57,545 bases of DNA from Escherichia coli (lineage in GTDB: Bacteria; Pseudomonadota; Gammaproteobacteria; Enterobacterales; Enterobacteriaceae), in the NCBI RefSeq assembly GCF_003334765.1, contig NZ_QOWT01000027.1. One strand, written 5' to 3'. Position numbers and translations under genes: made by a program. Under the pieces are notes generated by a model. The model worked only from the letters and a program-made list of their open reading frames with translations, ran no database searches and was not told where the DNA came from. Positions 14,816-17,771 of this stretch are shown here, one piece after another. Each line of letters begins with the position of its first letter. The stretch's first letter is position 1.

Positions 14816-15577
14816 ATGCCCGATCAAACACAACAATTTTCGTTCAAGGTGCTCACCATCAATATTCACAAAGGCTTTACCGCGTTTAACCGACGCTTCA
14901 TTTTGCCGGAACTTCGCGACGCCGTGCGTACCGTCAGCGCCGATATTGTTTGCCTGCAGGAAGTGATGGGCGCGCACGAAGTTCATCCGCTGCATGTGGA
15001 AAACTGGCCCGATACCTCGCACTACGAGTTTCTCGCCGACACTATGTGGAGCGATTTTGCCTACGGTCGCAATGCCGTATACCCGGAAGGGCATCACGGC
15101 AACGCCGTACTGTCGCGTTATCCCATTGAACATTATGAGAATCGCGATGTTTCGGTCGATGGTGCGGAAAAGCGCGGCGTGCTCTACTGCCGCATTGTGC
15201 CGCCGATGACCGGAAAAGCGATTCATGTGATGTGCGTACATCTGGGCCTGCGTGAGGCGCACCGTCAGGCGCAGCTTGCGATGCTCGCCGAATGGGTGAA
15301 TGAGCTACCGGACGGCGAACCGGTATTGGTGGCGGGTGATTTCAATGACTGGCGGCAAAAAGCTAATCATCCGTTAAAAGTGCAGGCCGGACTGGATGAG
15401 ATTTTTACCCGCGCCCACGGACGCCCGGCGCGCACGTTTCCGGTGCAATTTCCTCTACTACGACTGGACAGGATCTACGTCAAAAATGCCAGCGCCAGCG
15501 CGCCAACCGCGTTGCCGCTGCGGACATGGCGACACCTTTCTGATCATGCCCCTTTAAGTGCGGAGATTCATTTATGA
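14816..15577 (+). CDS. ybhP: endonuclease/exonuclease/phosphatase (EEP)-family protein
   Basis: 253-aa ORF; stop overlaps the clsB start (ATGA). Confidence 0.85.
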
Positions 15578-16815
15578 AATGTAGCTGGCGCGAAGGCAAT
15601 AAGATCCAGTTGCTGGAAAACGGCGAGCAATATTATCCCGCGGTGTTTAAGGCGATTGGCGAGGCACAAGAACGCATCATTCTTGAAACGTTTATCTGGT
15701 TTGAGGATGACGTCGGCAAACAACTGCATGCGGCACTACTGGCAGCAGCGCAACGCGGGGTTAAAGCGGAAGTCTTGCTGGATGGCTACGGTTCGCCGGA
15801 TCTCAGCGATGAGTTTGTCAATGAACTGACGGCAGCTGGCGTAGTGTTCCGCTACTACGATCCCCGCCCTCGCCTTTTTGGTATGCGCACCAATGTGTTT
15901 CGCCGGATGCATCGCAAAATTGTGGTGATCGACGCGCGTATAGCCTTTATTGGCGGGCTGAATTACTCCGCCGAGCATATGTCCAGCTACGGTCCAGAGG
16001 CTAAACAGGATTACGCGGTACGCCTTGAAGGGCCGATTGTCGAAGATATTCTCCAGTTTGAGCTGGAAAACCTGCCTGGACAGAGCGCGGCACGACGCTG
16101 GTGGCGACGTCATCACAAAGCGGAAGAGAACCGCCAGCCGGGAGAAGCGCAGGTATTGCTGGTCTGGCGCGATAACGAAGAACATCGCGATGATATTGAA
16201 CGCCATTATTTGAAAATGCTCACTCAGGCGCGGCGGGAAGTGATTATCGCCAACGCCTACTTCTTCCCCGGCTATCGATTTTTACACGCCTTGCGTAAAG
16301 CGGCACGGCGCGGGGTGCGGATCAAACTGATCATTCAGGGCGAACCGGATATGCCGATTGTCAGAGTCGGTGCGCGCTTGCTGTATAACTATCTGGTTAA
16401 AGGCGGCGTTCAGGTTTTTGAGTACCGCCGCCGCCCGCTCCACGGCAAAGTGGCATTGATGGACGATCACTGGGCGACAGTAGGGTCCAGTAATCTCGAT
16501 CCGCTCAGTTTGTCACTGAATCTCGAAGCAAATGTCATCATCCACGATCGTCATTTTAACCAGACGCTGCGCGATAATCTGAACGGCATTATTGCCGCAG
16601 ATTGTCAGCAGGTGGATGAAACCATGCTGCCCAAACGCACCTGGTGGAACCTGACCAAAAGCGTGCTGGCGTTCCACTTTTTACGCCACTTCCCGGCGCT
16701 GGTTGGCTGGCTTCCGGCACACACGCCACGTCTGGCGCAGGTTGATCCGCCCGCACAACCGACAATGGAAACGCAGGATCGGGTAGAAACTGAAAACACG
16801 GGGGTAAAACCCTGA
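15574..16815 (+). CDS. clsB: cardiolipin synthase B (phospholipase D family)
   Basis: 413-aa ORF with two HKD motifs (HRKIVVID... and HGKVALMDD...). Confidence 0.9.
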
Positions 16816-17771
16816 TGAGTAAATCACACCCGCGCTGGCGCTTAGCAAAGAAGATCCTCACCTGGCTGTTTTTTATCGCGGTGATTGTGTTGCTGGTGGT
16901 CTACGCCAAAAAAGTGGACTGGGAAGAGGTCTGGAAGGTCATCCGCGACTACAATCGCGTTGCGCTGCTTAGTGCGGTCGGGCTGGTGGTCGTCAGCTAT
17001 CTGATTTACGGCTGCTATGACCTGCTCGCCCGCTTTTACTGCGGTCACAAACTGGCGAAGCGCCAGGTGATGCTGGTGTCGTTTATCTGCTACGCCTTCA
17101 ACCTGACGCTCAGTACCTGGGTCGGCGGCATTGGTATGCGCTATCGTTTGTACTCTCGTCTGGGGTTGCCCGGTAGCACTATTACGCGGATTTTCTCGCT
17201 CAGTATTACCACCAACTGGCTGGGCTACATTTTACTGGCAGGGATTATCTTTACCGCAGGCGTGGTGGAGTTGCCGGATCACTGGTATGTCGATCAAACT
17301 ACGCTGCGTATTCTCGGCATTGGCTTACTGATGATTATCGCGGTTTATTTGTGGTTTTGCGCTTTCGCGAAGCACCGCCATATGACCATCAAAGGGCAAA
17401 AGCTGGTGCTGCCTTCATGGAAATTCGCCCTCGCTCAGATGCTGATTTCCAGCGTTAACTGGATGGTAATGGGGGCGATTATCTGGCTGTTACTTGGTCA
17501 AAGCGTGAACTATTTCTTTGTACTGGGCGTGTTACTGGTTAGTAGTATTGCTGGCGTCATCGTGCATATTCCGGCGGGGATCGGTGTGCTGGAAGCGGTG
17601 TTTATCGCACTACTGGCTGGGGAGCATACCTCCAAAGGTACAATTATCGCCGCCCTACTCGCTTACCGTGTGCTGTATTACTTTATCCCACTGCTGCTGG
17701 CGCTGATCTGTTACCTGTTGCTGGAAAGCCAGGCGAAGAAGCTACGGGCGAAAAATGAAGCGGCGATGTGA
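16815..17771 (+). CDS. ybhN: inner membrane protein, UPF0104 / lysylphosphatidylglycerol-synthase-like TM domain
   Basis: 318-aa polytopic membrane ORF; start overlaps the clsB stop (TGATGA). Confidence 0.85.
   Translation: MSKSHPRWRLAKKILTWLFFIAVIVLLVVYAKKVDWEEVWKVIRDYNRVALLSAVGLVVVSYLIYGCYDLLARFYCGHKLAKRQVMLVSFICYAFNLTLSTWVGGIGMRYRLYSRLGLPGSTITRIFSLSITTNWLGYILLAGIIFTAGVVELPDHWYVDQTTLRILGIGLLMIIAVYLWFCAFAKHRHMTIKGQKLVLPSWKFALAQMLISSVNWMVMGAIIWLLLGQSVNYFFVLGVLLVSSIAGVIVHIPAGIGVLEAVFIALLAGEHTSKGTIIAALLAYRVLYYFIPLLLALICYLLLESQAKKLRAKNEAAM

Follow-up and report, generated by a model that had tools for sequence, protein, structure and literature searches.

The genes ybhP, clsB and ybhN follow one another on the + strand of a 57,545-nt stretch of Escherichia coli DNA (contig NZ_QOWT01000027.1 of RefSeq assembly GCF_003334765.1; this whole stretch is referred to as the window). 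They encode, respectively, a protein of the endonuclease/exonuclease/phosphatase (EEP) fold, a phospholipase D (PLD)-type cardiolipin synthase, and a polytopic membrane protein related to the transport domain of MprF. The locus is the already known chromosomal operon ybhP-clsB-ybhN of E. coli, identical, with no difference, to the unit of E. coli K-12 and Salmonella, and published work handles it as one operon (PMC9241728, PMC10100675 and the PplT preprint). RefSeq coding-sequence boundaries of a 100% identical genome coincide exactly with the window coordinates and carry the three names that an earlier note, made from the letters of this DNA, had assigned. A 3.2-kb query matched in 5424 of 5426 complete E. 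coli genomes (near full length in 5423), with the genes annotated ybhP, clsB and ybhN. What our analysis adds to this known operon is the breadth of its synteny, conserved junctions between the genes, natural EEP-PLD fusions and the substitution of ybhN by a DedA gene; the interest now lies with YbhP and with an EEP-PLD-scramblase pattern that makes the role of ClsB testable. The best explanation overall, which we regard as probable, is that this stress-induced operon forms a make, trim and flip module that remodels anionic and glyco-phospholipids. The genes and their junctions are as follows.

14816..15577, + strand: ybhP, 253 amino acids (aa), cytoplasmic, EEP fold, predicted Mg2+-dependent phosphoesterase
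15574..16815, + strand: clsB, 413 aa, PLD-superfamily transphosphatidylase (cardiolipin synthase B), no transmembrane helices
16815..17771, + strand: ybhN (proposed name PplT), 318 aa, polytopic inner-membrane protein, homologue of transmembrane domain 1 (TMD1, helices 1-8) of MprF, no synthase half
15562..15577, + strand: coupling junction 1, a GGAG Shine-Dalgarno sequence inside ybhP followed by ATGA
16813..16817, + strand: coupling junction 2, TGATG with a 1-nt overlap

At the first junction, the clsB start lies over the ybhP stop by 4 nt (ATGA, 15574-15577), and the GGAG motif (15562-15565) is placed 8 nt 5′ of the clsB ATG. At the second, one nucleotide is common to the clsB stop and the ybhN start, and a GGGGG run (16800-16804) lies 10 nt upstream of the ybhN ATG. 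Open reading frames, sequence and RefSeq boundaries thus confirm to the base the overlaps that the earlier note had described as ATGA and TGATGA (the latter at 16813-16818). Stop/start overlaps are common within bacterial operons and the overlap alone is therefore ordinary; what raises it above chance is that 45 of the 66 syntenic loci, spread over several orders, keep the ATGA junction.

The earlier note had also read the three products as an EEP-fold protein, a PLD cardiolipin synthase with two HKD motifs, and a polytopic protein resembling the flippase/transmembrane domain of MprF-type synthases. Assignment with profile hidden Markov models upheld all three calls. ClsB matched the NCBIfam equivalog NF008427 with 751.2 bits (cut-off 281) over its residues 1-408 on a 409-position profile, and contains two PLDc_2 domains with the HKD motifs HRKIVVID at 113 (H113) and HGKVALMD at 290 (H290). 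Its 19-residue hydropathy maximum is 1.16 and no segment reaches 1.6, which gives no transmembrane segment, unlike ClsA and in agreement with PMC11698083. Its aromatic and hydrophobic C-terminal segment is strongly conserved in the paired YbhP-ClsB alignment; a single-sequence search of the PDB with ClsB returned no match. ClsB is a peripheral transphosphatidylase at the cytoplasmic face, with published activities that convert two phosphatidylglycerol (PG) molecules to cardiolipin (CL) and phosphatidylethanolamine (PE) plus glycerol to PG.

YbhN has multiple hydrophobic segments, matched PF03706 (LPG_synthase_TM) at 4.6e-15, and aligned over residues 15-310 to residues 40-342 of the solved Pseudomonas aeruginosa MprF (E 3.4e-22), with the shared motifs GVLEAV/GVFEAV, YRVLYY/YRLIY and FIPLL/VLPLL (YbhN/MprF). 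Going by published residue numbers, E260, R285 and P292 of YbhN are probably the counterparts of E295 and R319, which form a salt bridge in MprF, and of its hinge proline P326. Against the MprF profile NF033480, YbhN scored 164 bits, below the cut-off of 600, and covered positions 3-301 of 841; against TIGR00374 it scored 27.3, below the cut-off of 43.2. Given these scores and the lack of TMD2 and synthase, YbhN is a transport-domain homologue and not an MprF. The TMD1 region of MprF is a flippase/scramblase domain with two re-entrant hairpins, and scrambling has been shown for the P. aeruginosa protein. A preprint that names YbhN PplT notes that Escherichia, Shigella, Klebsiella and Pantoea have the operon, reports that the pplT mutant is impaired in growth and fitness, and describes two-hybrid interactions of YbhN with ClsB, PgpA, PgpB and PgpC; these findings are repeated in the paper on the P. 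aeruginosa MprF scramblase.

For YbhP, the match to Pfam Exo_endo_phos (PF03372) was 3e-23, and a search of NCBIfam gave nothing more specific than the EEP superfamily. We examined the catalytic set, i.e. the metal-binding Asn and Glu, the Asp and Asn of GDFN, and the Asp and His of SDH, and found it complete. In 108 relatives of 36-62% identity, N16, E49, D175, N177 and H244 are invariant, and H142, D218 and D243 are conserved in at least 90%. This (near-)invariance indicates that YbhP is an enzyme under selection and argues for retained catalysis. Neither a hydrophobic segment nor a signal peptide was found in the YbhP sequence. An AlphaFold2 (AF2) model reached a pLDDT of 96.9. By both profile and fold, the characterised enzymes closest to YbhP are TDP2, bacterial sphingomyelinase C, neutral sphingomyelinase 2 and nocturnin, followed by ExoIII, DNase I and 5-phosphatases. 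While a single-sequence PDB search gave marginal ExoIII matches only, the family profile matched TDP2 and sphingomyelinase C/beta-haemolysin in the PDB at 1e-8 to 3e-8 and ExoIII at ~1e-3. These profile and model comparisons weakly suggest that the substrate is not nucleic acid, and do not name the substrate itself. With just 18-23% identity of YbhP to sphingomyelinase C, human neutral sphingomyelinase 2 and TDP2, they provide a lead and not a membership.

Conservation of the gene order was assessed by scanning one genome per species with the YbhP alignment, in which the best 80 of 379 confirmed loci (identity at least 55%) were inspected. A ClsB homologue (49-87% identity) lies directly 3′ of the YbhP homologue on the same strand in 66 of these 80 loci, and a YbhN homologue comes third in 63 of the 66; the other three end at a contig edge. 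The 66 loci comprise 24 from Pseudomonadales, 23 from Burkholderiales, nine from Enterobacterales, two each from Cellvibrionales, Oceanospirillales and Lysobacterales, three unclassified proteobacterial metagenome-assembled genomes (MAGs), and one E. coli contaminant contig. The three-gene order is thus found in other genera across the Gamma- and Betaproteobacteria. With start codons at the junctions picked by a heuristic, the 4-nt ybhP/clsB overlap is present in 45 of the 66 loci, and a clsB/ybhN spacing of -4 or -1 in 31 of 63. The contaminant contig (L001; NZ_AADV02000322.1, 2043 bp, labelled 'Crocosphaera watsonii WH 8501') is 100% identical to E. coli ybhP, has an apparent frameshift in clsB, and is almost certainly E. 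coli DNA in a cyanobacterial assembly. Extra gene copies also occur: a Cellvibrio locus (L054, 6001-11296) has a single ybhP followed by two tandem ClsB-YbhN pairs, and a Ramlibacter MAG (L051, 8105-9987) has ClsB followed by two tandem YbhN genes.

The association of EEP and PLD proteins extends beyond Proteobacteria, to distant relatives. A search of 50% clusters returned 381 clusters at E <=1e-30, and natural fusion is exemplified by P0220, a protein of 648 aa made up of an EEP domain, a pair of HKD domains and a hydrophobic tail at the C terminus. A search with P0220 led to four additional, divergent EEP-PLD fusions, P0271, P0272, P0274 and P0284. Besides, a two-HKD gene stands beside the EEP gene in three of seven sampled distant relatives (<=42% identity). 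The arrangement varies: L082 has the order PLD-EEP behind an inositol-monophosphatase-family gene, the PLD gene of L085 is convergent to the EEP gene, and the two genes of L091 overlap each other. EEP and PLD have been selected to remain adjacent, coupled or fused. A DedA/VTT gene in L085, where ybhN is absent, overlaps the EEP start by 4 nt, and in L081 a DedA-domain gene adjoins the fusion gene. DedA proteins, which are scramblases, have been described as interchangeable with MprF transport domains; the presence of DedA in the place of ybhN therefore lends independent support to lipid translocation by the third gene. The low-GC metagenomic contigs L081 and L087 carry their fusions at 3180-5126 and 5001-6938, respectively. 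As a separate observation, P0276 is an EEP-NUDIX fusion, and NUDIX genes lie directly upstream of the fusion gene in L088 and L089.

Published expression data suggest common control of the three genes. The pair ybhPO has been listed as RpoS-dependent (fold-induction 251 for ybhP versus 7 for ybhO), clsB rises ~9-fold in late stationary phase, and the whole unit is fluoride-induced and listed as regulated by guanosine tetraphosphate (ppGpp). An inhibitor of LolCDE induced ybhP 17.6-fold, clsB 12.3-fold and ybhN 4.4-fold, along with Rcs and sigma-S genes. Co-induction of the operon genes is seen in three published transcriptomes, and the trehalose synthesis genes otsBA are co-induced with the operon. 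The three genes are probably transcribed together. Stationary phase raises their expression, as does envelope, osmotic or ppGpp stress. Co-transcription is supported by RpoS dependence, by this co-induction, by CL overproduction from an operon clone (see below), by the absence of a sigma-70-like promoter on the + strand inside the operon, and by a conserved -10 element and palindrome in front of it. Published fold-induction declines along the operon (ybhP > clsB > ybhN), and it is here that the earlier proposal of a fixed-stoichiometry lipid-remodelling unit has to be divided. Its lipid unit is strongly supported by synteny, EEP-PLD fusions and co-expression; its fixed stoichiometry is a conjecture that the declining induction does not favour and the linker-fused AF2 model of YbhP and ClsB does not support. 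That model, built on a paired alignment of just 24 rows including three natural fusions, gave a pLDDT of 78.8 and a pTM of 0.58, i.e. no confident interface and no support for a fixed complex. An unpaired alignment for the fused model was discarded, as MAFFT had put most ClsB rows on the YbhP half.

Since a scan for the sigma-70 consensus gave no site on the + strand, either upstream of ybhP or inside 14816-17771, and a total count at chance level, we aligned the upstream region from nine enterobacterial genera. Three features emerged in the ybhQ/ybhP intergenic region.

14732..14749, no strand assigned: 18-bp perfect palindrome TTACGGAAAATTCCGTAA, near-invariant in nine enterobacterial genera
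14761..14768, + strand: TTTGTGAC block just 5′ of the -10 element, TTTGTGA invariant in nine of nine genera
14774..14780, + strand: CTACACT, a TACACT -10 element with C at position -13, ACTACA.T invariant in the nine genera

The invariance of ACTACA.T extends to Pantoea and Mangrovibacter within this alignment. The arrangement TTTGTGAC-N5-CTACACT spans 14761-14780, and the larger block TTTGTGAC...CTACACTATTT, at 14761-14784, is near-invariant in the nine genera. TACACT with a preceding C is a -10 element of the sigma-S type. The operon likely has a promoter of the sigma-S type ~35 nt 5′ of ybhP, and such a -10 element fits the published RpoS dependence. The palindrome TTACGGAAAATTCCGTAA, whose centre lies ~46 nt 5′ of the transcription start that the -10 element predicts, is a candidate to bind a dimeric regulator. 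Within it, GGA-N4-TCC forms a core that resembles an RcsB box. The operon rises with the Rcs regulon, to which this box would provide a putative link. Palindrome and TTTGTGAC...CTACACTATTT block together may constitute an RcsB-type operator and a sigma-S -10 element.

Two other candidates were set aside. Chromatin immunoprecipitation sequencing in Salmonella placed a sigma-E peak between ybhP and ybhQ; GAACTT at 14727-14732, inspected by eye, has no TCNAA-type -10 at a distance of 15-17 nt, and a sigma-E promoter was not assigned on the + strand. An RpoF site at the ybhP/ybhO junction, reported from genomic SELEX, is weak (4.9), falls where there is no spacer, and was not adopted. Within the operon, weak terminator-like hairpins occur on the + strand at 14882-14896 (ybhP) and at 16981-16998 and 17060-17079 (early ybhN); the region holds 10 hairpins against 5.1 +/- 1.8 expected, with poor T-tracts. 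The hairpins inside ybhP and ybhN might contribute to the weaker induction of ybhN. On the - strand, a published ybhN antisense transcript repressed by H-NS is ended by a Rho-dependent RNA-polymerase-binding aptamer (iRAP, PMC6847712).

How could the three proteins cooperate? In the make, trim and flip module that we propose, ClsB would exchange head groups at the cytoplasmic face of the inner membrane. YbhN, as an energy-independent scramblase of the MprF-TMD1 type, would move ClsB substrates or bulky (four-acyl) products between the inner-membrane leaflets; this part we consider somewhat more likely than not. YbhP, as an active Mg2+-dependent phosphoesterase at the same face, would cut a lipid head-group or head-group-derived phosphoester and thereby trim a substrate or product of ClsB or turn it over, an assignment that we hold tentatively and that falls a little short of an even bet. 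As PLD exchange is reversible, hydrolysis by YbhP would give it direction or turn over its product.

Several points weigh against this module. The synteny count is biased, since the 80 loci inspected come from the closest relatives alone. Fourteen of them (13 from Pseudomonas and one from a Planctomycetota MAG) carry an orphan, second YbhP paralogue that has neither ClsB nor YbhN beside it, and four of the seven sampled distant relatives have no PLD neighbour; a PLD enzyme is therefore no obligate companion of the YbhP family. The comparison of structures and profiles does not discriminate the substrate of YbhP, its top matches being uncharacterised proteins, and the fused model, as set out above, shows no confident interface between YbhP and ClsB. 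As to phenotypes, deletion of pplT (ybhN) leaves the bulk lipid pattern on thin-layer chromatography as it is, and deletion of clsB alone had no lipid or proteome phenotype in several conditions. In Salmonella, where phosphatidyl- and diphosphatidyl-trehalose (PT/diPT) require ClsB and CL does not, plasmid-borne clsB alone complements the loss of PT/diPT, so that ybhN is probably not strictly needed for synthesis. Finally, literature searches returned no study of YbhP itself, with ybhP turning up in expression tables alone, and nothing relevant on an EEP protein and a cardiolipin synthase in one operon.

Among the alternatives, the one that survives best changes the product and keeps the division of labour: the module would make not CL but another phosphatidyl-X, such as PT/diPT, PE-derived PG or an undiscovered glycolipid, with YbhP processing the head group and YbhN exposing the product periplasmically. 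We consider this possible, although doubtful. The Salmonella requirement for ClsB in PT/diPT but not in CL speaks for it, as does the finding that E. coli strains with identical clsB differ in PT/diPT, for which the authors invoke unknown additional requirements. Co-induction of otsBA with the operon points the same way. So do the neighbours of YbhP homologues in other genomes: the orphan Pseudomonas paralogues (L056 2790-6732, L049, L052, L053, L059, L060, L061 and L068) usually lie behind a PIG-L-family deacetylase gene and sometimes behind the series PIG-L/methyltransferase/GT2/PIG-L. PIG-L genes also stand upstream of the full operon in L015 (3962-5310) and L071 (2793-3548). The PIG-L neighbourhood hints at a glycolipid head-group pathway, and the inositol-monophosphatase-family gene before the PLD-EEP pair of L082 falls on the same side. 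A characterised parallel is gpgSDF of P. aeruginosa, which joins a synthase, a head-group hydrolase and a flippase of the YbhN family by the same logic. On the other hand, the cloned ybhP-clsB-ybhN operon restores and overproduces CL in a Salmonella clsABC mutant, whereas H290A is inactive; Pseudomonas, Bordetella and Shigella have clsB orthologues, yet PT/diPT went undetected there; and free trehalose as an acceptor needs no phosphoesterase.

A second alternative denies YbhP a reaction of its own: it would serve ClsB as an accessory without enzymatic activity, by stabilising, folding or activating it, as YmdB may do for ClsC, and coupling would deliver it co-translationally. Each cls gene of E. 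coli and Salmonella has an operon partner (clsA-yciU, ymdB-clsC and ybhP-clsB-ybhN), clsC clones that contain ymdB have more ClsC activity, and both the conserved ATGA junction and the natural fusions speak for this reading. Its weak point is catalysis, because the EEP residues are (near-)invariant in 108 homologues with identities as low as 36%; there are also orphan paralogues that lack ClsB, and the fused model has no confident interface, though this is a weak test. We thus regard the accessory role as decidedly unlikely. That the genes are merely co-transcribed neighbours, with YbhP a nuclease or repair phosphodiesterase unrelated to lipids, as the older annotation 'predicted DNase' and the presence of TDP2 and ExoIII among its structural relatives would have it, is most improbable given the synteny of 66 of 80 loci in two proteobacterial classes with its conserved junction, at least five divergent EEP-PLD fusions, renewed PLD adjacency in distant low-GC lineages, and matches of ExoIII-type nucleases to the family profile that are ~10^5-fold worse than those of TDP2 or sphingomyelinase C.

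Comparison with known systems sets the make, trim and flip module in context. Like the ybhP-clsB pair, ymdB-clsC places a PLD-type cardiolipin synthase without transmembrane helices after a soluble partner of hydrolase fold and is induced in stationary phase; unlike it, the partner YmdB is a macrodomain protein and not an EEP protein, a flippase-like third gene is missing, and ClsC uses PE and PG. MprF shares with the operon the pairing of a lipid-modifying enzyme at the cytoplasmic face with a translocator, its whole TMD1 being homologous to YbhN. It differs in being a single protein of ~850 aa with TMD2 and a tRNA-dependent synthase, whereas the operon encodes its enzyme separately, as a PLD-type protein; aminoacyl-PG is not made by E. 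coli. The gpgSDF genes (and hexSDF of Clostridioides difficile) likewise combine a cytoplasmic head-group synthase, a trimming hydrolase and a predicted flippase of the YbhN/UPF0104 family, but employ a GT4 glycosyltransferase and a deacetylase in place of PLD and EEP proteins, make glucosaminyl-PG (GlcN-PG), and have a different gene order.

Taken further, EEP and PLD would form an ancient core for head-group exchange and trimming, split and coupled in Proteobacteria, fused in some low-GC lineages, and served by interchangeable scramblases (YbhN or DedA). YbhP would then be the founder of a bacterial family of lipid head-group phosphodiesterases/phosphatases at the cytoplasmic face, and its activity would determine whether, under sigma-S or Rcs stress, it is cardiolipin, PE-derived PG, or trehalose and other glyco-phospholipids that build up as the ClsB product and arrive in the outer leaflet. 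We think this extended scenario unlikely in its full form; if true, it could explain the strain-dependent PT/diPT that clsB sequence leaves unexplained. Why E. coli keeps three cardiolipin synthases, what the true role of ClsB is, and how bulky lipids cross the inner membrane are long-standing questions, and the trehalose phospholipids made by Salmonella ClsB activate Mincle. The proposed module, if true, would mean a new family of lipid phosphoesterases and, for Gram-negative bacteria, the first case in which a stand-alone translocator of the MprF type is functionally paired with a synthase.

The operon is flanked by ybhQ (14273..14683), which is divergent from it, and by the convergent ybhM (17807..18520). 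The 3′ ends of ybhQ (- strand) and the convergent ybhR (+ strand, 13205..14311) overlap by 39 nt (14273-14311). Downstream of the operon, ybhM and ybhL are adjacent paralogues of the BAX-inhibitor-1/YccA family on the - strand. In some E. coli genomes (NZ_AP027622.1 and NZ_CP069093.1), the match to the region is broken in two, and the annotation beneath it includes a transposase of the IS1 or IS5 family; in these strains, the operon or its edge is split by an insertion sequence.

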